Shown: piece after piece, positions 11,479 through 64,000 of the stretch
Layout of the letters: each line of letters opens with the position of its first letter
Numbering within the stretch: the stretch's first letter is position 1
Assembly: GCF_988243305.1 (NCBI RefSeq)
Contig: NZ_OZ547136.1
DNA length: 64,000 nucleotides
Direction: 5' to 3' (one strand)
Position numbers and translations under genes: made by a program
The notes under the pieces: model-generated
Database searches by the model: none
What the model saw: only the letters and a program-made list of their open reading frames with translations
What the model was told of the DNA's origin: nothing

Positions 11479-12436
11479 AGCACTACTGAACGCGGGACGT
11501 CAGACGTTAATGCTGGAGTTGCAGGAAGCAAGCCGTTTACCGGAACGTCTGGGCGATGATTTTGTTCGCGCCGCCAATATCATCCTGCACTGCGAAGGCA
11601 AAGTGGTGGTTTCGGGAATTGGCAAATCGGGCCACATTGGTAAGAAAATCGCCGCAACGCTTGCCAGCACTGGCACACCGGCTTTTTTTGTCCATCCGGC
11701 AGAAGCACTGCACGGCGATCTGGGGATGATTGAAAGCCGCGATGTGATGCTGTTTATCTCTTACTCCGGTGGCGCGAAGGAACTGGATCTGATTATTCCG
11801 CGTCTGGAAGATAAATCTATCGCGCTGCTGGCGATGACCGGCAAACCGACGTCACCGCTGGGCCTGGCGGCAAAAGCGGTGCTGGATATCTCCGTAGAAC
11901 GCGAAGCCTGTCCGATGCACCTTGCGCCGACCTCCAGCACCGTGAATACCCTGATGATGGGTGACGCGCTGGCGATGGCGGTCATGCAGGCGCGCGGATT
12001 TAATGAAGAAGATTTTGCCCGCTCCCACCCTGCAGGAGCACTGGGCGCTCGCTTGCTGAATAAAGTGCATCATCTGATGCGTCGTGATGACGCTATCCCA
12101 CAAGTAGCGTTAACCGCCAGCGTGATGGATGCGATGCTGGAACTCAGCCGCACTGGTCTGGGGCTGGTGGCGGTATGTGACGCTCAACAACAGGTACAAG
12201 GCGTCTTTACCGACGGCGATTTACGTCGCTGGCTGGTTGGCGGCGGCGCACTCACCACGCCAGTTAATGAAGCGATGACGACAGGCGGCACCACATTACA
12301 GGCACAAAGTCGCGCCATCGACGCCAAAGAGATCCTGATGAAGCGCAAAATCACTGCCGCACCGGTAGTGGATGAAAACGGCAAACTCACCGGCGCAATT
12401 AACCTGCAGGATTTCTATCAGGCCGGGATTATTTAA
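11471..12436 (+). CDS. gutQ: D-arabinose 5-phosphate isomerase (SIS + CBS domains)
   Basis: 321 aa recognised as GutQ. Confidence 0.92.
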
Positions 12437-13947
12437 TCCTTCAGCCCCAGACGTTTCGCCAGCCGATGCAGGTTGGCGACGTCGGTTTCCAGCATCCGCG
12501 CACAGGCGGCCCAGTTGTGATGATTTTGCGCCAGCGCCTGACGAATGGTTTCACGCTGGAACGCTTCTGTCGCTTCACGAAGATTTTGCTTAACAACGGG
12601 CACCGCCGCTGCTTCTGGCGGCGGCAACGTCACATCAGGAAAAGCAAAATGTTGCGCCTCAAGAATCACTTCATCGCCGCTGCGGGTGGCTCTCGACAGT
12701 ACTACCGCCCGATGAATAGCATGTTCCAGTTCGCGCACGTTTCCCGGAAAACTGTAGTGTTGCAGTAAATTTTGCGCCCCGGCACTTAATACCACGCGGG
12801 AGAGCCCCAGCCGCAAACGACACTGCTCGCAGAAATACCCCGCCAGCAGAATGACATCATCGCCCCGCTCACGCAGCGGCGGCACCGAAAGTGGGAACAC
12901 GCTCAGGCGATGAAACAAATCGGCGCGGAATCGCCCTGCCAGTACCTCTTCGCGTAAGTCGCGGTTAGTCGCCGCCAGCACGCGCACATCGACCCGCAAA
13001 CTGCGGTCATCGCCAACACGCTGAATATCGCCATACTGCAACACTCGCAGCAACTTGGCCTGCAATGCCAACGACAACTCGCCGATCTCATCGAGAAACA
13101 GTGTGCCGTTATCCGCCATTTCAAACTTCCCGCTGCGGTTACTGATAGCGCCAGTAAACGCCCCTTTCACATGCCCGAACAGTTCACTTTCCGCCACACT
13201 TTCCGGCAGTGCGGCACAGTTGAGATAGACCAGCGGATTCACCGCCCGTGGCGAGGCTTCATGAATCGCTTTCGCCACCAGCTCCTTACCGGTTCCCGTC
13301 TCACCGCTGATCAGGACGTTGAGATCGGACGCCGCCACAATCTCAATCTCTTTTTTCAATTGCGTCATGCCTGGCGACAAGCCAATCATCTGCGTCTGTT
13401 TCACCGCTTCAAACGGCGCGGCATCGCCCGGCAGCATATTCTGGCTTTCCAGTTGCTCAATCAGCAACGCATTGCTTAACGCTCCCGCCGCCAGCGCGGC
13501 AATCAGGCGTAACTCTTCGTCGCTGAAAACATCGAACTGATCGGGCTGCATCCCGTCGAGCGTCAATGCGCCGATCAGGTTTTGCCCGGCAAACAATGGC
13601 AGACCAACGCAGGCGTGAACCTTCAGACTCTCCTGCCCGGGAATCAAACCGTCATAGGGATCGGGCAATTCGCTGTCTGCGGGAAAGCGCACCACGTCCC
13701 CGGCGCGGGCAATCGCTTCCAGCCGTGGATGCCCTTCCAGCGCAAAGCGTCTACCGAGTACATCCTTCGCCAGCCCGTCGATGGCAAGCGGAATAAACTG
13801 CCGCGAGTCATAACGTAGCAACGCAGAGGCATCACACTCCAGCACCTGACGCAGCGTGGTGATCAGGCGCTGAAAACGATCCTGATGACCAATCCCACGC
13901 TGCAATTCGATGGCGATATTCGCCAGCACATCAACGGAAAAACTCAT
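12433..13947 (-). CDS. norR: Sigma-54-dependent NO-responsive activator NorR
   Basis: Start trimmed to [16 protein letters not shown]; GAF domain, AAA+ domain with [14 protein letters not shown] motif and C-terminal HTH. Confidence 0.95.
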
Positions 13948-13959
13948 CTTTGCCTCACT

Positions 13960-14015
13960 GTCAATTTGACTATAGATATTGTCATATCGACCATTTGATT
14001 GATAGTCATTTTGAC
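13960..14015 (+). promoter_or_regulatory. Three NorR-type enhancer sites (GT-N7-AC): GTCAATTTGAC, GTCATATCGAC, GTCATTTTGAC
   Basis: Three spaced GT-N7-AC inverted repeats in the norR-norV divergent region, matching the known NorR binding motif. Confidence 0.8.
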
Positions 14016-14070
14016 TACTCATTAATGAGCATAATTTTATTTATAGAGTAAAAACAATCAGATAAAAAAC

Positions 14071-14086
14071 TGGCACGCAATCTGCA
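14071..14086 (+). promoter_or_regulatory. Sigma-54 promoter (-24/-12) for norVW
   Basis: TGGCACGCAATCTGCA matches the TGGCAC-N5-TTGCA consensus, about 48 bp upstream of the norV ATG. Confidence 0.85.
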
Positions 14087-14133
14087 ATTAGCAAGACATC
14101 TTTTTAGAACACGCTGAATAAATTGAGGTTGCT

Positions 14134-15573
14134 ATGTCTATTGTGGTGAAAAATAACATTCATTGGGTTGGTCAACGTGACTGGGAAGTGCGTGATTTTC
14201 ACGGCACGGAATATAAAACGCTGCGCGGCAGCAGCTACAACAGCTACCTCATCCGCGAAGAAAAAAACGTGCTGATCGACACCGTTGACCATAAATTCAG
14301 CCGCGAATTTGTGCAGAACCTGCGTAATGAAATCGATCTGGCGGATATCGATTACATCGTGATTAACCATGCAGAAGAGGACCACGCCGGGGCGCTGACC
14401 GAACTGATGGCGCAAATTCCCGATACGCCGATTTACTGTACTGCCAACGCTATCGACTCGATAAATGGTCATCACCATCATCCGGAGTGGAATTTTAATG
14501 TGGTGAAAACTGGCGACACGCTGGATATCGGCAACGGCAAACAGCTCATTTTTGTCGAAACGCCAATGCTGCACTGGCCGGACAGCATGATGACTTACCT
14601 GACAGGCGACGCGGTGCTATTCAGTAACGATGCTTTCGGTCAGCACTACTGCGACGAGCATCTGTTCAACGATGAAGTGGATCAGACGGAGCTTTTCGAG
14701 CAGTGCCAGCGTTACTACGCCAATATCCTGACGCCGTTCAGCCGCCTGGTAACGCCGAAAATTACCGAGATCCTGGGCTTTAACTTACCAGTCGATATGA
14801 TAGCGACCTCTCACGGCGTGGTATGGCGCGATAACCCGACGCAAATTGTCGAGCTGTACCTGAAATGGGCGGCGGATTATCAGGAAGACAGAATCACCAT
14901 TTTCTACGACACCATGTCGAATAATACCCGCATGATGGCCGATGCTATCGCCCAGGGTATTGCGGAAACCGACCCACGCGTGGCGGTGAAAATTTTCAAC
15001 GTCGCCCGAAGCGATAAAAACGAAATCCTGACCAATGTCTTCCGCTCAAAAGGCGTGCTGGTCGGCACTTCTACGATGAATAATGTGATGATGCCGAAAA
15101 TCGCCGGGCTGGTGGAGGAGATGACTGGTTTACGCTTCCGTAACAAACGCGCCAGTGCTTTCGGCTCTCACGGCTGGAGCGGCGGTGCGGTGGATCGTCT
15201 TTCCACACGCCTGCAGGATGCAGGTTTCGAAATGTCGCTTAGCCTGAAAGCCAAATGGCGACCGGACCAGGACGCTCTGGAGTTATGCCGTGAACACGGT
15301 CGCGAAATCGCCCGTCAGTGGGCGCTCGCGCCGCTGCCGCAGAGCACGGTGAATACGGTAGTTAAAGAAGAAACCTCTGCCACCACGACGGCTGACCTCG
15401 GCCCACGGATGCAGTGCAGCGTCTGCCAGTGGATTTACGATCCGGCAAAAGGCGAGCCAATGCAGGACGTTGCGCCAGGAACGCCGTGGAGTGAAGTCCC
15501 GGATAACTTCCTGTGCCCGGAATGCTCTCTCGGCAAAGACGTCTTTGACGAACTGGCATCGGAGGCAAAATGA
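14134..15573 (+). CDS. norV: Anaerobic NO reductase flavorubredoxin
   Basis: 479 aa with metallo-beta-lactamase, flavodoxin and C-terminal rubredoxin (CxxC ... CPxC) modules. Confidence 0.96.
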
Positions 15574-16703
15574 GCAACGGCATTGTGATCATTGGTTCGG
15601 GCTTCGCCGCCCGCCAACTGGTGAAAAATATTCGCAAACAGGACGCCAGTATTCCATTAACTCTGATTGCCGCCGACAGCATGGATGAGTACAACAAACC
15701 GGATCTCAGCCATGTTATCAGCCAGGGGCAACGTGCCGATGACCTTACCCGCCAGACGGCGGGTGAATTTGCCGAGAAGTTTAATCTGCACCTGTTTCCG
15801 CACACCTGGGTGACGGATATCGATGCCGAAGCCCATGTGGTGAAAAGTCAGAATAATCAGTGGCAATACGACAAGTTAGTGCTGGCAACCGGAGCCAGCG
15901 CCTTTGTCCCGCCAGTGCCTGGGCGTGAGTTAATGCTGACGTTAAATAGTCAGCAAGAGTATCGCGCCTGTGAAACGCAACTGCGGGATGCCCGACGCGT
16001 GTTGATTGTTGGCGGTGGCTTGATTGGTAGCGAACTGGCGATGGATTTTTGTCGTGCAGGCAAAGCGGTCACGCTAATCGACAACGCTGCCAGTATTCTG
16101 GCGTCGTTAATGCCACCGGAAGTAAGCAGCCGCTTGCAGCATCGGTTGACGGAGATGGGCGTTCATCTGCTGTTGAAATCTCAGTTGCAGGGGCTGGAAA
16201 AAACGGATTCTGGCATTCTGGCAACGCTGGACCGCCAGCGCAGCATCGAAGTGGATGCGGTAATTGCCGCCACCGGGCTGCGCCCGGAAACCGCCCTGGC
16301 ACGACGCGCCGGGCTGACGATTAATCGCGGCGTTTGCGTCGATAGTTATCTGCAAACCAGTAATGCCGATATTTATGCGCTGGGCGATTGCGCGGAAATT
16401 AACGGTCAGGTATTGCCGTTCCTCCAGCCGATTCAACTTAGCGCGATGGTGCTGGCAAAAAATCTTCTCGGCAATAACACGCCGCTGAAACTCCCTGCGA
16501 TGCTGGTGAAAATCAAAACGCCGGAATTACCGCTGCATCTGGCAGGCGAAACCCAGCGTCAGGATTTACGCTGGCAAATTAATACCGAACACCAGGGAAT
16601 GGTGGCGCGCGGTGTTGATGATGCTGACCAGCTTCGCGCCTTTGTGGTCAGTGAGGATCGGATGAAAGAGGCGTTTGGATTGTTGAAAACGTTGCCGGTA
16701 TAG
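15570..16703 (+). CDS. norW: NADH:flavorubredoxin reductase
   Basis: 377 aa FAD/NAD(P)-binding oxidoreductase (GSGFAA, GGGLIG), translationally coupled to norV. Confidence 0.95.
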
Positions 16704-16715
16704 GCATGTTTTTCT

Positions 16716-16756
16716 CCCTCGCCCAAAGGGCGAGGGGACTGTCCGCGCTCTTTTTA
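16716..16756 (+). terminator. Hairpin (CCCTCGCCC aaa GGGCGAGGG) with T-run after norW
   Basis: Perfect 9-bp stem; T-tract about 12 nt downstream. Confidence 0.5.
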
Positions 16757-16780
16757 CGCTTAGTTACGCCACATCCGCCA

Positions 16781-19021
16781 CTATGCAGCATGCAGGATGC
16801 GCGCCGCAGCAATAACCCCCTGCCCCAGAGACAAGCCGCCATCACCCGCCGGTAAACTCTGCGGAAAGAGTAATGTGAAATCAGCGAGATAATGCGCCAG
16901 GCGTGTACGCAGCAATCGGTTATGAATAACCCCACCGCTAAATACCAGCGTAGTGATACCGCGCATCGTGGCCTGCTCACGCATCAACGCGGCAAAACCC
17001 TGCGCCAGCGCATCATGAAACGCCCACGCGCGTTGATTAACCGGTGCCAGCCAGTTCAGCCACTGCTGCCAGAAAGTGGCGAGATCCAGTTGATTGTCCA
17101 CCAGCGGTATCGTCACCGGATGCGTCACTCCGTCGCATGAAGCTGCTAGCGCCTCCAGAGCACAAGCCGCTTCACCTTCATAGCTTAACGTGGCTGGCGC
17201 ACAGCCCAGTGCCGCCGCCACAGCATCGAACAAACGTCCACACGATGATGCCAGCGGCGCGTTAATTCCACGCTCAATGGCCCGCGCCAGCACGCTCCAG
17301 TTTTGCTGTTGCACACTTGCCGTTTCAGGGTAATTCTGCCACTCCGGCACAAAGCGCAGGCACTGCGCCAGCAGGTTACGCCACGGCTGCTTCGCCGCCA
17401 AATCGCCCCCCGGAAGCGCCACTGCAGGCAAGCCGCCCAGGTGCTGGCATTCGCGATAGTTCACCCGCAGGCACTCGCCGCCCCATAAAGCGCCGTTCTC
17501 CCCCATACCGATACCGTCGAGCGTCAACGCAATGACATCACCGCCATCCAGTGGCCAGTGATGTTCTGCCAGACACGCCGCCGCATGAGCATGATGATGC
17601 AGCACCGTTTGCGTCGGCAGATTCATTTCGCGCGCCCACTGGCTGGAGACATAGCCCGGATGTGCGTCATGCACAACGTATTGCGGGGTAAAATCGTAGA
17701 TGTTTTGCATCAGGCGTAACGCTTCGCGCCACTGCATCTGGATGCCATCGTCACTTAAATCGCCCAGATGCTGACTCAACACTGCTTGTTCACCGCGCAC
17801 CAGGCAGAAGGTATTTTTCAGATCCGCGCCGAGACACAGCACAGGCGGAACATTTTTAAAGCCCGGAGGCAAAGCCAGCGCATCCGGCACATACCCCCGC
17901 GAACGGCGCAGCATTTCGCCGCTTTCACGCACCACCGAATCATCCATCCGCTGCACGATGTCGCGGTTATGTATCAAGAATCCGTCGGCAATGCCCTGCA
18001 AATCCGCCAGCGCCTGTTCGTTGCTGATAGCCGGTGGTTTACCGCTCAGGTTACCGGAGGTCATCACCAGCGGGCATTGCAGTTCCTGTAACAGCAAATG
18101 CTGGAGCGGGTTCGCAGGCAACATTACCCCGACTTCGTTAAGGCCAGGGGCGATATCATCACAAAGCTCAGGTACATATTTTTTATCCACCAGCACAATC
18201 GGCGCGGCGGGCGTGGTAAGCAACTGGCGCGTAGCGTCTGGTAAACCGTCAGCCACTGGCAACATGACCGCCAGCGGTTTCGCCGGGCGATGTTTGCGCG
18301 CCCGAAGTGTCGCCACCGCGTTACTGTTACGTGCATCGCAGGCAAGATGAAATCCGCCAATCCCTTTGATGGCGACAATGTTGCCCATTTTTAACTGTGC
18401 GATAGCTGCCTGTAATGCCGCCTCTTGTTCCGCATGTTCATCATGACTTACCCATTCAAGATGGGGGCCACACTCCGGGCAGGCCACCGGCTGGGCGTGG
18501 AAGCGACGATCGAGCGGGTCGCGATATTCTTTGTCACAGGCCGGACACAGCGGAAACGCCGCCATCACGGTAAACGGGCGGTCGTAAGGCATCGCGCGAA
18601 TAATGGTGAAACGTGGGCCGCAGTGGGTACAGTTGATAAACGGATAACGATAACGCCGCTCGCCCGGGGTATTCATTTCAGCAAGACAGGCAGGACAAGT
18701 CGCGGCATCGGGAACAATTTGCGTATTCATGACTCCGCCTGTGCTCTGACGGATAGTGAACTCGGTGGGCAGTTGTGACCAGATAAACGGCTCACGCTCG
18801 ACGCTATCAATACGCGCCAGCGGCGGGCAGTGCTGATGCAACTGCACAAGAAACGTTTCCGGGTCTTCCAGCAGCCGGACTTCCACTCCATCGCCGTCAT
18901 TACAGACATCGCCGTGAAGATTTAATTGCTGTGCCAGCTGCCAGACAAACGGACGAAAACCGACGCCCTGCACTTTGCCACGAATACGCAGTTGGACACC
19001 GCAAGATGTGTTTTTTGCCAT
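16781..19021 (-). CDS. hypF: Carbamoyltransferase HypF ([NiFe]-hydrogenase maturation)
   Basis: Start trimmed to [25 protein letters not shown] (acylphosphatase domain), followed by Zn-finger CxxC pairs, YrdC and Kae1-like domains. Confidence 0.95.
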
Positions 19022-24527: not shown

Positions 24528-24762
24528 TCTTTGTTCTCTCTGTAGTAACGTGTCAGACGCCCACTTTTCTAAAATGCCAGGTTTGCTCGGCATCATAAGG
24601 CATGGTCAGGAGAGGTTTCAGCGCCCGCTTTTGCGCGTATTCGCTGTCACTCATTGGCAGATATTCGGTAAAGCTGGTGGCCTGTGCAGGCAGCACAAAG
24701 CAAAATAAAAAAGCGCACATCCCTGTTCTGATTTTCAATTCCCTGAATTCCTTACTGAAAAA

Positions 24763-38606: not shown

Positions 38607-38650
38607 CAGATGTGGTTATACTCGATCAACATTCAATGAAAGGAGGCAGT

Positions 38651-39079
38651 ATGGCAGTTTCAGCAAGAAATCAATTAACCGGAACGGTTAGCGCAGTAGC
38701 AATGGGCGCTGTGAATGATGAAGTAGAACTGACGCTGGCAGGTGGTGCAAAACTGGTGGCAATTGTGACTCACAGCAGCCAGCAGGCTCTTGGTCTGGCA
38801 AAAGGGAAAGAAGCGATTGCCCTGATTAAAGCCCCGTGGGTCACGCTGGCAACGGAAGACTGTGGACTGAAATTCTCTGCTCGCAACCAATTTGCTGGCA
38901 GCGTGTCGACAATCACCGAAGGCGCAGTGAACGCCACTGTCCATATCAAAACGGATGCGGGTTTTGAAATTGTGGCAGTGGTAACAAATGAAAGTCAGGA
39001 TGAAATGAAACTCACCACTGGCTCGCGCGTTATTGCATTGATCAAAGCATCAGCCATCCTGATTGCCACCAAAGCGTAA
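38651..39079 (+). CDS. Tandem TOBE-domain (di-Mop) molybdate/tungstate-binding-like protein
   Basis: About 142 aa from MAVSARNQL, preceded by AGGAGG. Two internal repeats of about 70 aa (SARNQLTGTVS...AIALIKAPWVTLA and SARNQFAGSVS...VIALIKASAILIA) match the Mop/TOBE fold signature. Confidence 0.75.
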   Translation: MAVSARNQLTGTVSAVAMGAVNDEVELTLAGGAKLVAIVTHSSQQALGLAKGKEAIALIKAPWVTLATEDCGLKFSARNQFAGSVSTITEGAVNATVHIKTDAGFEIVAVVTNESQDEMKLTTGSRVIALIKASAILIATKA

Positions 39080-39090
39080 GCGCCTTATTT

Positions 39091-39127
39091 GCCGGAGAGT
39101 ATGGCTCTCCGGCAGATTTATTTCTTT
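39091..39127 (+). terminator. Hairpin (GCCGGAGAG ... CTCTCCGGC) plus T-rich tail after the TOBE gene
   Basis: Perfect 9-bp stem followed by TTTATTTCTTT; convergent with the ygbA 3' end. Confidence 0.6.
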
Positions 39128-42310: not shown

Positions 42311-42315
42311 TATTA

Positions 42316-42344
42316 ATGAGCCCCGATTAAACTTCGGGGCTCAT
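42316..42344 (+). terminator. mutS terminator hairpin (ATGAGCCCCG ... CGGGGCTCAT)
   Basis: Perfect 10-bp stem right after the mutS stop, followed by a T-rich sequence. Confidence 0.65.
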
Positions 42345-42414
42345 ATATCTCTTATCCGATAGATAAAAAAGGAGTAAAATAAACACTATTAAGAACAAAA
42401 CATTCAAGAAAAAA

Positions 42415-43278
42415 ATGAGAATAACGATTGCATCAATAATTTTAATAATTAGCGCCACTGCAATAGGCGCCGAAGATACCCCTTCACATTTTGATATTCC
42501 CGAGCAAGTATTAAATAATATTACGAAGGAATCACGAAATAAACTGCAGGATATCATTGCCAAGGCTCAACATGGCGATAAAGCCTCACAAACGGTGATG
42601 GGACTCATATACCTGAATGGTCTATCTGAAAGTCCTTCAGTGAAGGATATAAACAAAGCATTTTATTGGCTCAACCTTGCAGCAAAGCAAAATTATGATG
42701 AAGCTGAATTTTACTTAGGACAGATTTATCATTACGGATATGATAATACGGGGCCTAACTATCGTATTGCGATATACTGGTATGAGAAAGCGGCAGAAAA
42801 AGGGAATGAACAAGCTCAAATAAACTGTGCGAATATTTATCAATTTGGCCCACAGGAATTCCAAAACATTAACAAAGCCAAGTATTGGCTTCAGAAAGCA
42901 GTACAGAAGGACAATCCTATTGCACATGCAAACTTAGGGATTATCGGAATTCAAGAGAATAAGTATGCTGAAGCTATCCCTCACTTAAAAATAGCGGCAG
43001 AAAAGGGTCAGCGACTCGGCCAATATAATTACGGGACACTTTTTTTTAATGGTCAGGGCGTTCCCAAAGATATACGACAGGCTAAATACTGGTTTGAGAA
43101 AGCTGCTACTCAAAACTTACCTATTGCACAAATTACTTTAGGACAAATTTATGCCTGGGGGCTTGATGAAAATGGCATAAATAAAGAAGAAGCGTTGCTC
43201 TGGTTAAATAAAGCCAAAGCCCAAGGTCAATTTACTGATAAACAGATCAACGCCATTATTTCAAAAAAAATAGACTAA
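42415..43278 (+). CDS. Secreted Sel1-like repeat (SLR/TPR-like) protein
   Basis: 287 aa with signal-peptide-like N-terminus MRITIASIILIISATAIGA and at least five Sel1 motifs (e.g. KAFYWLNLAAKQNYDEAEFYLGQIYHYG, IAIYWYEKAAEKGNEQAQINCANIYQFG, QAKYWFEKAATQNLPIAQITLGQIYAWG). Markedly AT-rich compared with the flanks. Confidence 0.8.
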   Translation: MRITIASIILIISATAIGAEDTPSHFDIPEQVLNNITKESRNKLQDIIAKAQHGDKASQTVMGLIYLNGLSESPSVKDINKAFYWLNLAAKQNYDEAEFYLGQIYHYGYDNTGPNYRIAIYWYEKAAEKGNEQAQINCANIYQFGPQEFQNINKAKYWLQKAVQKDNPIAHANLGIIGIQENKYAEAIPHLKIAAEKGQRLGQYNYGTLFFNGQGVPKDIRQAKYWFEKAATQNLPIAQITLGQIYAWGLDENGINKEEALLWLNKAKAQGQFTDKQINAIISKKID

Positions 43279-43290
43279 CTCCAAACCAAA

Positions 43291-43959
43291 ATGCTCAAAT
43301 CAATGCCATCTATTCGCTATCACAAAATAGAATCATTTAATTATCGCCATATATGGGCCGTTGGTGATATTCATGGCGATTATCAATTATTACAATCCCG
43401 CTTACACCAACTCTCTTTTTGCCCCTAAACTGACTTACTTATTTCCGTAGGCGATAATATTGATCGTGGGCCGGATAGTCTTAACGTGCTACGCCTGTTA
43501 AACCAGCCCTGGTTTACATCGGTTAAAGGCAACCACGAGGCAATGGCGCTTGATGCCTTCGCGACTGGCGATGGCAATATGTGGCTTGCCAGTGGCGGTG
43601 ACTGGTTCTTTGAGTTAAATGATTCAGAACAAAAAGAAGCAATAGACCTGTTGCTTCGCTTTCATCATCTTCCGCATATTATAGAAATCACTAACGATAT
43701 TATAAAATATGTTATCGCACATGCAGATTATCCGGGTGATGAATATCAGTTTGGCAAGGAAGTAGCGGAAAGAGAGGTACTCTGGCCTGTTGATCGCGTG
43801 CAGAAATCACTCAAAGGCGAGTTAAAAGAAATAAACGGTGCCGACTGTTTTATCTTCGGGCATATGATGTTTACAAATATCCAGACATTTGCCAATCAGG
43901 TTTATATTGATACCGGCTCGCCGGAAAGCGGGCGGTTATCGTTTTATAAAATAAAATGA
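43291..43959 (+). pseudogene. pphB: Ser/Thr protein phosphatase 2 (PP-lambda family), interrupted by in-frame TAA at about 43426-43428
   Basis: Frame reads MLKSMPSIRYHKIESFNYRHIWAVGDIHGDYQLLQSRLHQLSFCP-stop-TDLLISVGDNIDRGPDSLNVLRLLNQPWFTSVKGNHEAMA...; the stop lies between the GDxHG and GDxxDRG metallophosphatase motifs. Confidence 0.8.
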
Positions 43960-43963
43960 CAAG

Positions 43964-44002
43964 ACCGGGTAAGGCAAAGCCTCTACCCGGCACTTTTTTA
44001 TT
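43964..44002 (+). terminator. Hairpin (CCGGGTA ... TACCCGG) with T-tract, between convergent pphB and the decarboxylase operon
   Basis: Inverted repeat followed by CTTTTTTATT. Confidence 0.55.
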
Positions 44003-58007: not shown

Positions 58008-60414
58008 GGGAGTTCTACCGCAGGGGCGGGGAACTCCAAGTGATATCCATCATCGCATCCAGTGCGTCCGGTTTATCCCCGCTGACGCGGGGAACTCCGT
58101 GTGGGAACTACGAGTAGGCCGTTTTCTCTCGGTTTATCCCCGCTGGCGCGGGGAACTCCAATATCCGCGCCGTACCCAGCAAATGCTGACGGTTTATCCC
58201 CGCTGGCGCGGGGAACTCTACCGCATATTCACCAAAGTCCTCTATTTTGTCGGTTTATCCCCGCTGACGCGGGGAACTCGAGCGGACGCTCGACGATAAC
58301 ACCGATTTGCAAGGTTTATCCCCGCTGGCGCGGGGAACTCCAATATCCGCGCCGTACCCAGCAAATGCTGACGGTTTATCCCCGCTGGCGCGGGGAACTC
58401 TACCGCATATTCACCAAAGTCCTCTATTTTGTCGGTTTATCCCCGCTGACGCGGGGAACTCGAGCGGACGCTCGACGATAACACCGATTTGCAAGGTTTA
58501 TCCCCGCTGACGCGGGGAACTCCCGTCAGGCCGCGTCAATCGTTTAGCCCACGGCGGTTTATCCCCGCTGACGCGGGGAACTCACATGGAGTACATCATG
58601 AACAGACCACTGACCCGGTTTATCCCCGCTGACGCGGGGAACTCAGATTTTAGATGAGATGAAGTTGAATAGTTTACGGTTTATCCCCGCTGACGCGGGG
58701 AACTCATAAATCATTCTTTTCTTTCATCACCTACGACCGGTTTATCCCCGCTGACGCGGGAAACTCCTGTAGACGTTCTTTGGTAATGGTTTTCATCACG
58801 GTTTATCCCCGCTGACGCGGGGAACTCAATACTACAAACATCAAATGCGTTATTTACTGCGGTTTATCCCCGCTGACGCGGGGAACTCTAAGCCGTGACG
58901 AGGGTCGCCGCTGGCGTCAACGGTTTATCCCCGCTGACGCGGGGAACTCTTACAGATGTAATAAATCACACATGTAATAGCCGGTTTATCCCCGCTGACG
59001 CGGGGAACTCGATCGGGAGGATTTTAAACGCTGGTCAATGGCCGGTTTATCCCCGCTGACGCGGGGAACTCAATTACCGGGTGTCTAGTGCTCATACGCA
59101 GCCCGGTTTATCCCCGCTGACGCGGGGAACTCAATTACTGGGTGTCTCGTGCTCATATGCAGCCCGGTTTATCCCCGCTGACGCGGGGAACTCTTTCCCC
59201 CATGCGGGAAGCGCGTGCGATTTCGCGGTTTATCCCCGCTGACGCGGGGAACTCTTTTAGGTGTGCTGAGATTATTTGTCGCGGCGCGGTTTATCCCCGC
59301 TGACGCGGGGAACTCTTATCAGCAGCCAGACCAGCATTCGGGGAATACGGTTTATCCCCGCTGACGCGGGGAACTCATGATCAAATCAGTGCCGAGCTGG
59401 TGCAGATGCGGTTTATCCCCGCTGACGCGGGGAACTCAAAACAGGTTTGCCTGTCGCCCTCCGGTCCACCGGTTTATCCCCGCTGACGCGGGGAACTCCA
59501 ATCCGTTTATTACTTTATTTCTGCCGCCTTCGGTTTATCCCCGCTGACGCGGGGAACTCCAACGTTTTGGTAATCAACGGAAGGAGCTTCGCGGTTTATC
59601 CCCGCTGACGCGGGGAACTCAATAAATTCAGGAGCGGTAACGATATATTTAACGGTTTATCCCCGCTGACGCGGGGAACTCGTAAAGGCGTTGCCCTGTT
59701 CCGTCGCTGTTGTCGGTTTATCCCCGCTGACGCGGGGAACTCATCCGTTAATTATTGAGAGAGCTATCAGCTATCGGTTTATCCCCGCTGACGCGGGGAA
59801 CTCACCATCAGTCCTTGAGCCGAGAAAATCGCCGCCGGTTTATCCCCGCTGACGCGGGGAACTCAGCTATATACGGGAGCAAGATTATAATATCTGCGGT
59901 TTATCCCCGCTGACGCGGGGAACTCTTTCGCCCAATCTTGCGCGCTCTGACCTATCTGGGTTTATCCCCGCTGACGCGGGGAACTCGTGGGTGGCTGCCG
60001 TCGCGGCTGGTGCTGCGGCGGTTTATCCCCGCTGACGCGGGGAACTCACTGAGTATTTGCCTCAAGTGATGTACTGGTCCGGTTTATCCCCGCTGACGCG
60101 GGGAACTCAATATCGCCGTCAATGCCAATATTTTTCCGCGCGGTTTATCCCCGCTGACGCGGGGAACTCGTGAAAATAGAGGAAGGGCGCATTATTGGCG
60201 GCGGTTTATCCCCGCTGACGCGGGGAACTCGCGTCAGAAGCGATTGAATCAATAGCGGATCACGGTTTATCCCCGCTGACGCGGGGAACTCGTCCATTTT
60301 CCCCCTGGAGGCTGTAATTCACCGCGGTTTATCCCCGCTGACGCGGGGAACTCTTATTCAGCCAACGCGGCGCGGGGCTTGTTTGCGGTTTATCCCCGCT
60401 GACGCGGGGAACTC
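58008..60414 (-). CRISPR. Type I-E CRISPR array: 39 full 29-nt repeats plus one degenerate terminal repeat, 39 spacers (31-33 nt)
   Basis: Repeat CGGTTTATCCCCGCTG(A/G)CGCGGGGAACTC at about 61-bp period, i.e. GAGTTCCCCGCG(T/C)CAGCGGGGATAAACCG on the transcribed strand. The degenerate repeat is at the iap end and the AT-rich leader at the cas2 end. Confidence 0.97.
58130..58493 (-). repeat. Tandem duplication (2 x 182 bp) of a three-spacer/three-repeat block inside the CRISPR array
   Basis: Spacers CAATATCCGCGCCGTACCCAGCAAATGCTGA, TACCGCATATTCACCAAAGTCCTCTATTTTGT and GAGCGGACGCTCGACGATAACACCGATTTGCA occur twice in the same order, each copy with the same GGC/GGC/GAC repeat variants; ORF-track peptides are duplicated accordingly. 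Confidence 0.95.
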
Positions 60415-60519
60415 TCTAAAAGTATACATTTGTTCTTAAAGCATTTTTTCCCATAAAAACAACCCACCAACCTTAATGTAACATTTCCTTATTATTAAAG
60501 ATCAGCTAATTCTTTGTTT
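60415..60519 (-). promoter_or_regulatory. CRISPR leader (AT-rich) with array promoter
   Basis: AT-rich segment between the last repeat and the cas2 stop; sets array polarity. Confidence 0.8.
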
Positions 60520-61723
<1,204 letters not shown>

Positions 61724-61738
61724 TTTATTACACCTAAA

Positions 61739-62338
61739 TCACAGTGGAGCCAAAGATAGCAAGCCACATCCCATCGATTTAGCTGGCCCAATACCTTGCT
61801 GTACAAGATCTATTAACGCTGGCGCGTCGTTGATGGTGATCACCCCTTCAAAGCAAACCGTTTGAATCTTTCCACTTTTACCATCACCAGAAAAATACTG
61901 TGGCCGTTCCGATATGGGATGCACATCTTCAACGCGCGCCGCATTGCCCAATTTACGTTGCAACCACGCGATTTGTTCTGCTTCTTTTATTAACGGAACC
62001 CGACAGCGTTTAATATTCCCTTTACTATCCAGGCGCTTTTGATTGTCGAGAATAGTTTTGATCGGATTTGCCCGAAGCCGAAAATAGAGTGGAACACCAA
62101 CCTGAAGTTGAAATTCAACCTGTTTAGTTTTAATGACTGTCGCAACAGCAGTTGAAACAGGCATTTGCGCTGACTGCAATAAAACATGACAGCCTTCTGG
62201 TGTGTTTCGCTTCTCAACATGAAAAAGAAAATCACGAGCAGCATCCGGTCTGTTTGGAAATAAATGCCATAATCCCTGGTGAAGTTGGTAAAGATCCCTG
62301 CTCCAGGCCCTGGCAATGATGACTTTACTGAGATACAT
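61739..62338 (-). CDS. cas6e: Cas6e (CasE) pre-crRNA endoribonuclease
   Basis: 199 aa recognised as CasE. Confidence 0.95.
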   Translation of the reverse strand: MYLSKVIIARAWSRDLYQLHQGLWHLFPNRPDAARDFLFHVEKRNTPEGCHVLLQSAQMPVSTAVATVIKTKQVEFQLQVGVPLYFRLRANPIKTILDNQKRLDSKGNIKRCRVPLIKEAEQIAWLQRKLGNAARVEDVHPISERPQYFSGDGKSGKIQTVCFEGVITINDAPALIDLVQQGIGPAKSMGCGLLSLAPL

Positions 62339-62999
62339 CCATACCTCCTTTAATCACATACCATTCTCGGGAAGCAAATTGTCGAGGTAAGGTGATCATC
62401 GGTTCGTCGCGCGCCGTAAATTTTAAATGATGCCCTGTAACTGATTCCTCACTATAAATATCGCCGCCAACGGGCTCATAATTTAATAGCGCCTTCTGAG
62501 GATCCGATGCCTGACATGTCCCCAAAAAAAGCGGGTGTGTTAGTGGGCAACTTCTCCGCCCCAGGTAGGGTGTATACCGAGGCTTTAATACTGCTTTTTC
62601 AAGTTCTGAGATAACCATCGTTGCATGGGGTGTTAACCAGAGAGCGACGGTAAAGGAGGCATCACATAAATATTCGCGCCATGTTTGAATCGTTTCATGA
62701 CTTTTCAAACCACGGTAATCTTCTCGCGCTCCAAGGACTGTATGGTAATCACGCAACCCCGTTACAGACACACGACGATCGTCAAGAATGAGTTCATCGC
62801 AGCGCACTGCAAATTGCACACTCTCTGATAACACCTGTAATGAAGAAGTATCATCACGTTGGATCCCAAGACAAGCCCCGAGTAGCCCTAATAACCCGCT
62901 TCGGGTCGGAAAACTTCCGGTAGGTCGCGTTCCTTCAAAGGTCGGCAGCCCCCAGGCTTGCATTGGCCCAGCAAGCCGCAAGATCAAATAAGATCTCAT
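62325..62999 (-). CDS. cas5: Cas5e (CasD) Cascade subunit
   Basis: Start trimmed to MRSYLILRLAGPMQAWG. Confidence 0.94.
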   Translation of the reverse strand: MRSYLILRLAGPMQAWGLPTFEGTRPTGSFPTRSGLLGLLGACLGIQRDDTSSLQVLSESVQFAVRCDELILDDRRVSVTGLRDYHTVLGAREDYRGLKSHETIQTWREYLCDASFTVALWLTPHATMVISELEKAVLKPRYTPYLGRRSCPLTHPLFLGTCQASDPQKALLNYEPVGGDIYSEESVTGHHLKFTARDEPMITLPRQFASREWYVIKGGMDVSQ

Positions 63000-63001
63000 G
63001 T

Positions 63002-64000
63002 TCATGCCTCGCCATTATTACGAACCCAGGATTTTAACTGTTCTAAAGTAGGCATTTGTTTAACTTGAGCAGTAATTGGGTCTACATCAGATAAGCTGAA
63101 TTGCGCAGCAGCTCCGTTCAGACCATATCCATTGGCAACGCGATCCCAATATTGATTAAACGCCTGTATAGACGGTTGCAAAAAGCCATCTTTCGCTTTA
63201 ACAGCTTTTTCAAAAGCATTTGCCATAGAAAGTGGCATATCGGAGAAATTAACCATTACCATATCCGCAGGGTTAAAAGCGGCATAAGTACGCTGTTTTG
63301 CTCCAGGGACCTCTGTTGCCAGCATATGAACAACATTGGTTGCAATTTCCAGAGCCTGCTCCCTGGAGGCACCACCTAAATTTTCCTGAAGTTGAGCGAG
63401 GTTAATGTTGGCGTAACGATAAAAAACACCCGATGAAAATTCCTGAGTTCCCAGATGTGCAGAACCTTGTTCCTGTAAATCATCTACAGCGGTGAACCAG
63501 TCAATATCTGAATCAACCTGATGAGTAGTGATCGCATGCGCAATGGACATTGCACCATCAACTTTTCCCAACTCACTCATCATGCCGCTGGTTGCCATTC
63601 TTCCGCTAAGCGCAATATCAACACCCTGCTGTAAATTCACACGTATGGCGGCAATATCTTCCTTAAGAACTTTGAGCAGCTTTTTATCATCCAGATTATC
63701 AGCCTCTGCTTTTGCAACCTGCTCACAGAACCAGGCTATTTCTCCCACAACCCAGGGAGTAACCGCATCGGCAGAAATCTTTTCGGCTTCATCAACTAAT
63801 TTACCGGAGAGCAGCGCTAATGTCTTATCGATGATTTTTTGGTCAAAACGTTCACCAAGTTTTTGCCGAAGAACATCACGTAATTGTGCAAGATGAATTG
63901 TTCTGAGACTGGATTCACCAATATTTTGTGCGTAATAATCACTTTTACGCATCGCACGTTTAAGGCTTTGACTTGAAATTCTTACTCGTCTTTTCCCGCC
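63002..64000 (-). CDS. cas7: Cas7e (CasC) Cascade backbone subunit, 5' end beyond the window
   Basis: C-terminal 316+ aa of a CasC-like protein; the frame is open to the window edge. Confidence 0.85.

Follow-up and report, generated by a model that had tools for sequence, protein, structure and literature searches.

The norR–norV intergenic region of an Escherichia coli chromosome carries the NorR enhancer and sigma-54 promoter of norVW

The 186-bp gap between the divergent genes norR and norV, in the 64,000-nt stretch of DNA analysed here (the window), is very probably the norR-norVW control region in its canonical E. coli form, working by the published mechanism. It combines three NorR enhancer repeats with a −24/−12 promoter element, an arrangement that is already known: it is a textbook sigma-54 enhancer and promoter in its canonical state. 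We infer that the norVW system of this strain is inducible by NO. The norRVW module of the strain is complete and its control region unbroken, which has little significance beyond annotation; NorVW contributes to nitrosative-stress survival in the gut and in macrophages, and rare natural isolates carry broken control regions.

Gene setting and protein integrity

Comparison with annotated genomes identified the window as a stretch of E. coli chromosome with the gene order csrA-alaS-recA-mltB-srl-gutQ-norR-norVW-hypF-asc-hyc-hyp-fhlA-mutS-rpoS-cys-iap; rpoN and ihfA/B are located outside it. Positions 13948–14133 are exactly the 186 bp between the start codons of norR (13947, minus strand) and norV (14134, plus strand). 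The genes around this gap, and the ribosome-binding site within it, are as follows.

12433–13947, minus strand: norR, NO-sensing sigma-54 enhancer-binding protein with GAF, AAA+ and HTH domains, 504 aa, divergent from norV (ORF list, Pfam, NCBIfam)
14125–14128, plus strand: GAGG, ribosome-binding site of norV (sequence; conserved in the 30-species footprint)
14134–15573, plus strand: norV, flavorubredoxin NO reductase, 479 aa, intact (Pfam, NCBIfam)
15570–16703, plus strand: norW, NADH:flavorubredoxin reductase, 377 aa, with a 4-bp overlap with norV (Pfam, NCBIfam)

An Rfam scan of the whole window returned only two tRNAs near its 5′ end and matched no RNA family between norR and norV.

NorR, NorV and NorW are full-length equivalogs. 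NorR contains the Pfam domains GAF, Sigma54_activat and AAA_lid_14 and scores 825 bits against the NCBIfam equivalog NF003451, for which the cut-off is 476; NorV combines metallo-beta-lactamase/ODP, flavodoxin and rubredoxin domains and reaches 1047 bits with NF003954, and NorW has the Pyr_redox_2 and Rbx_binding domains and reaches 684 bits with NF003437. NorV is identical to its K-12 counterpart at 477 of 479 residues (99.6% aa) and NorR at 496 of 504 (98.4% aa), the NorR substitutions being T177A, C316S, Q380L, R392Q, A418S, E438D, T443P and V446A. Published work on NorR assigns roles to the iron ligands R75, D96, D99, C113 and D131, to R81 and to the GAFTGA loop (PMC4601167, PMC2941729). 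All of these residues, including GAFTGA at 262–267, are unchanged, the last ~58 residues with the DNA-binding end are identical to K-12, and none of the eight substitutions touches a residue with a published role.

Architecture of the enhancer and promoter

The elements of the control region, with the evidence on which each was placed, are listed in the order in which they occur from norR towards norV.

13960–13970, no strand assigned: NorR site 3 (promoter-distal), GTCAATTTGAC (pattern search; identical to K-12; conserved footprint block)
13981–13991, no strand assigned: NorR site 2, GTCATATCGAC, 21 bp from site 3 (pattern search; identical to K-12; conserved block)
14005–14015, no strand assigned: NorR site 1 (promoter-proximal), GTCATTTTGAC, 24 bp from site 2 (pattern search; identical to K-12; conserved block)
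14016–14070, no strand assigned: AT-rich enhancer–promoter spacer, with the SNP (14028) and an A-rich block, 14050–14069, that is conserved (footprint; K-12 alignment)
14071–14086, plus strand: norVW sigma-54 promoter, TGGCACGCAATCTGCA (equivalent to TGGCACGcaatCTGCA), with −24 TGGCACG and −12 CTGCA (pattern search)
14096–14097, plus strand: predicted norVW transcription start (from the −24/−12 spacing)

The original prediction had read three GT-N7-AC inverted repeats upstream of norV, and a pattern search placed all three of them, between 13960 and 14015. Each has the form GTCA-N4-GAC, and their starts lie 21 and 24 bp apart, or about two helical turns each. Sites 3, 2 and 1 match, flanks included, the wild-type forms of the mutagenic primers of Tucker et al. 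2010 (PMC2831303), with the GG/CC of the primers reverted to GT/AC before matching, and site 1 also matches the 21-bp site-1 oligonucleotide GATAGTCATTTTGACTACTCA from the same work. In those experiments each single GT/AC to GG/CC change abolished norV activation, such that the three sites are individually essential, and mutation of any one of them also abolished enhancer-stimulated ATPase activity (PMC2831303). A fourth strict match to the motif, GTCAACGTGAC at 14171–14181, lies inside norV codons 13–16 (GQRD) and was rejected as a site, as it probably reflects chance or the coding sequence; GT-N7-AC is kept at this position in only 25 of 120 related loci, because the third base of the Gly codon varies freely.

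The predicted TGGCACG-N4-CTGCA element was likewise literally correct. Its GG (14072–14073) and GC (14084–14085) are separated by ten bases, and the element lies 48 bp upstream of the norV ATG (14134). It is the sole match to the sigma-54 pattern in the window, both strands combined, where 0.07 matches would be expected, and it is identical to the K-12 element, with which it also shares a −12 sequence (CTGCA) that is one base off the TTGCW consensus, with C in place of T. If the C of the GC at 14085 is taken as −12, then +1 falls at about 14097, and we infer a norVW transcription start near 14096–14097. The sequence around this predicted start, ACA, is compatible with the open-complex assay using only ATP and CTP that is described in PMC2831303.

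Variation within E. coli

Over the whole intergenic region, alignment to K-12 MG1655 was gap-free with 185 of 186 positions identical, so that the motifs stand in the same register as the validated sites and are unmutated. K-12 norVp has the same three sites, spacing, −24/−12 element, distance to norV, ribosome-binding site and divergent norR, and differs from the window in having G rather than A at 14028, and through eight NorR and two NorV amino-acid substitutions. Its three-site enhancer and sigma-54 promoter are reportedly the subject of Tucker et al. 2004 and Gardner et al. 2003. Together with the primer matches and the full-length NorR, NorV and NorW, this near-identity supports the original prediction that the NO-detoxification module is wired as in characterised strains, insofar as wiring may be read from DNA.

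The region is also identical to that of strain E2865 (186/186, within a 281-bp query that matched exactly), and of the 5426 complete E. coli genomes, 5425 have the control region. Its divergence from K-12 (1/186, 0.5%) is lower than that of third codon positions in either flanking gene (8.1% in norR and 5.8% in norV); the whole control region is therefore more constrained than adjoining synonymous sites, and the difference argues for purifying selection across it. We aligned K-12, five variant E. coli genomes and one E. albertii sequence, and among the six E. coli sequences the point variants fell in the spacers, sparing the site cores and the −24/−12 element. Two structural variants were found in addition. 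In the blood-culture isolate AF3 (L129, NZ_OZ547117.1), a 45-bp deletion joins sites 3 and 1 into one, the only site that remains; given the published requirement for three sites, norVW should be non-inducible in this isolate. In AHM8C160RI (L128, NZ_CP104598.1), a 14-bp tandem duplication, CACGCAATCTGCAA, is located at the −24/−12 element. These variants mean that describing a control region as intact is no trivial statement.

The one position that differs from K-12, 14028, is the only difference in the enhancer–promoter spacer; it sits between site 1 and the promoter and outside every motif. The A at this position turns the K-12 sequence CTCATTAATGGG into a perfect 12-bp palindrome, CTCATTAATGAG, at 14018–14029. 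It is a common natural allele: the exact 41-mer around 14028 was found with A in 2007 complete E. coli genomes, compared with 1457 that have the K-12 version. There is a slight probability that this polymorphism tunes norVW induction or creates a binding site for another regulator, in which case E. coli lineages would differ heritably in their responses to NO.

More broadly, the architecture could look intact and yet be altered, with the palindrome at 14028, the eight NorR substitutions, or both shifting the induction level or basal expression away from that of K-12. IHF has been reported to bind where the SNP is located, in the stretch that separates the NorR sites from the norV start (PMC2831303), and NorR is less similar to its K-12 counterpart than NorV is. 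We nevertheless give this reading only a slim chance, as the A allele is the commoner of the two and as no substitution affects an iron ligand, R81, GAFTGA or the C-terminal DNA-binding end. Conservation around position 14028 is also the lowest in the region according to a phylogenetic footprint, made by MAFFT alignment of 30 Enterobacterales sequences (29 related loci and the window), whose peaks coincide with the three sites, the A-rich block at 14050–14069, the −24/−12 element and the ribosome-binding site. Within the spacer, this footprint showed conservation across Enterobacterales at 14050–14069 and none at 14019–14045. Searching the window for the IHF consensus WATCAANNNNTTR with one mismatch allowed gave 53 matches, which at 46 expected is no better than chance, and none of these was in 14016–14070.

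Conservation across genera

To find related loci, we searched 100,044 species genomes for the NorV N-terminus, using a degenerate DNA pattern that presupposes nothing about the promoter. The search yielded 120 loci, which belong to Enterobacterales, Aeromonas, Pseudomonas, Stutzerimonas, Paraburkholderia, Photobacterium and others. Of 114 sequences, made up of the window itself and the 113 related loci with enough upstream DNA, 107 have a GT-N7-AC triple with 19–21 and 24–25 bp spacing upstream of norV. Three loci from Photobacterium aside, every examined locus has TGGCAC-N5-TTG ~63 bp ahead of the norV ATG, and a divergent norR, encoding a protein of 58–99% aa identity, adjoins norV in 96 of the 100 loci with enough flank. 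The survey re-confirms the three-site architecture and its spacing as a conserved property of NorR regulons, in a far larger genome sample than those of the 2004–2005 studies.

In the three Photobacterium loci (L024, L096 and L104), we found no NorR sites, sigma-54 element or adjacent norR at norV; in L024 and L104, the DNA upstream has AACATGTAT-N-ATACATGTT-like palindromes in their place, which resemble the NsrR motif. This pattern agrees with what Rodionov et al. 2005 described for P. profundum (PMC1274295). At the Franconibacter helveticus locus (L111), norV is preceded by three GTCAAAA(A/T)GAC sites together with a TGGCACG-N4-TTG promoter. No norR homologue was detectable anywhere along the 13.9 kb of this locus, and immediately upstream there is a terminator-like hairpin in its place; the norR of this genome presumably has another location.

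The −12 element itself varies among genera. About 40% of the norV upstream regions have TGGCACG-N4-TTGAT, in which GA replaces the canonical −12 GC at the same distance from the ATG; examples come from Enterobacter, Lelliottia, Raoultella, Kosakonia, Klebsiella indica and others (L006, L010, L016, L039, L083, L092 and L110). The −12 GC is kept in E. coli, Citrobacter, Aeromonas and Pseudomonas, and many Enterobacter-like genera thus differ from the window in having TTGAT where it has the YTGCA form.

The position of the sites bears on a different reading, in which they serve mainly as operators for NorR repression of the divergent norR promoter and activation of norVW is secondary. They lie 13–68 bp from the norR start codon, such that any promoter of norR has to flank these sites or overlap with them. 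Hutchings et al. 2002 reportedly described norR of E. coli as negatively autoregulated. NorR is further stated to regulate both norR and norVW (PMC8249747). Against operators being the main function, any single-site mutation abolishes norV activation together with the enhancer-stimulated ATPase, and the triple co-occurs with the norV sigma-54 promoter across genera, including at the F. helveticus locus that has no adjacent norR. A sigma-70 promoter scan for norR gave no match on the minus strand and a single plus-strand match (13979–14006) at chance level. We therefore regard a mainly repressive function as having a very slim chance, and autoregulation of norR through these sites is best seen as a role additional to norVW activation and not as an alternative to it: with the sites this close to the norR start, they probably also mediate the reported control of norR by NorR.

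A last reading, that the motifs are chance matches to a short degenerate consensus in AT-rich intergenic DNA with no regulatory role, has a negligible probability and is already refuted by the conservation data and the published mutagenesis. GT-N7-AC has just four fixed bases and matches singly 204 times in the window, and the strict match inside norV looks like such a chance occurrence, but a triple spaced by 18–23 and 22–27 bp occurs once in the 64 kb, where first-order Markov simulations produced on average 0.03 relaxed-motif triples per 64 kb and, in 300 simulations, no strict GTCA-N4-GAC triple. The same-spacing triples upstream of norV in other genomes, the identity to experimentally validated sites and the low expectation for a sigma-54 match also stand against chance.

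Mechanism and relation to other NorR systems

By the published mechanism (PMC2831303, PMC2941729, PMC4601167), three NorR dimers would bind the three repeats at 13960–14015, and the enhancer DNA would then act as both scaffold and co-activator for assembly of a hexameric AAA+ ring of NorR, as needed for its ATPase activity. Without NO, the N-terminal GAF domain is expected to block the GAFTGA surface that contacts sigma-54; binding of NO at the mononuclear iron of the GAF domain, as a mononitrosyl complex, would relieve this block. IHF may bend the spacer at 14016–14070 so that the ATP-hydrolysing NorR ring reaches sigma-54 RNA polymerase, which would be waiting as a closed complex at 14071–14086, and NorR would drive formation of the open complex. 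Transcription from about 14097 would yield NorV and NorW, which would reduce NO to N2O. In this account, site occupancy, the three-site requirement, hexamer assembly, GAF repression and IHF binding come from published K-12 experiments; the present analysis provides the presence, register, non-randomness and conservation of the DNA elements and the integrity of the three proteins.

Genomic SELEX identified the norR–norV spacer as the only target of NorR in K-12 (PMC8249747). Other described NorR regulons comprise norVW in Salmonella and Erwinia, hmp in Pseudomonas and Vibrio cholerae, and norAB in Ralstonia eutropha (Rodionov et al. 2005, PMC1274295). In these proteobacterial regulons, as in the window, GT-N7-AC sites are arranged in tandem upstream of a sigma-54 promoter and norR is usually adjacent. 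The target gene differs in some taxa. The site spacing in Pseudomonas and Aeromonas is 19–20 and 25 bp, compared with 21 and 24 bp in the window. The arrangement also resembles generic promoters of bacterial enhancer-binding proteins, such as those of NtrC at glnAp2 and NifA with IHF at nifH, with which it shares an activator site located upstream, looping assisted by IHF, and the use of ATP to open a sigma-54 closed complex (PMC2831303, PMC7175178). Unlike generic enhancer-binding proteins, NorR needs three sites and uses its enhancer DNA as a required ligand for hexamer assembly and ATPase activity, and it is controlled by repression through its GAF domain, whereas the generic proteins are controlled by phosphorylation-driven oligomerisation.

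Comparison of the wider window with other E. coli genomes

The closest of the 5,426 complete genomes to the window reaches 99.0% identity over 36–46 kb. Compared with E2865, the window is ~97–98% identical overall with several indels. It lacks a higBA-like toxin–antitoxin pair and a hypothetical gene that E2865 has between ascB and hycI (at 24556/24557), as well as ygbI-ygbN in the polymorphic mutS-rpoS region, and in it fhlA is followed by an additional TOBE-domain gene and mutS by a TPR gene (38607–39121 and 42312–43996). The norW-hypF spacer (16704–16800) is about 150 bp shorter than in E2865. The alignment to E2865 ends just past iap, at about 58460 in the window, within the annotated type I-E CRISPR array of E2865; the remainder of the window, ~58460–64000, presumably holds strain-specific spacers and cas genes.
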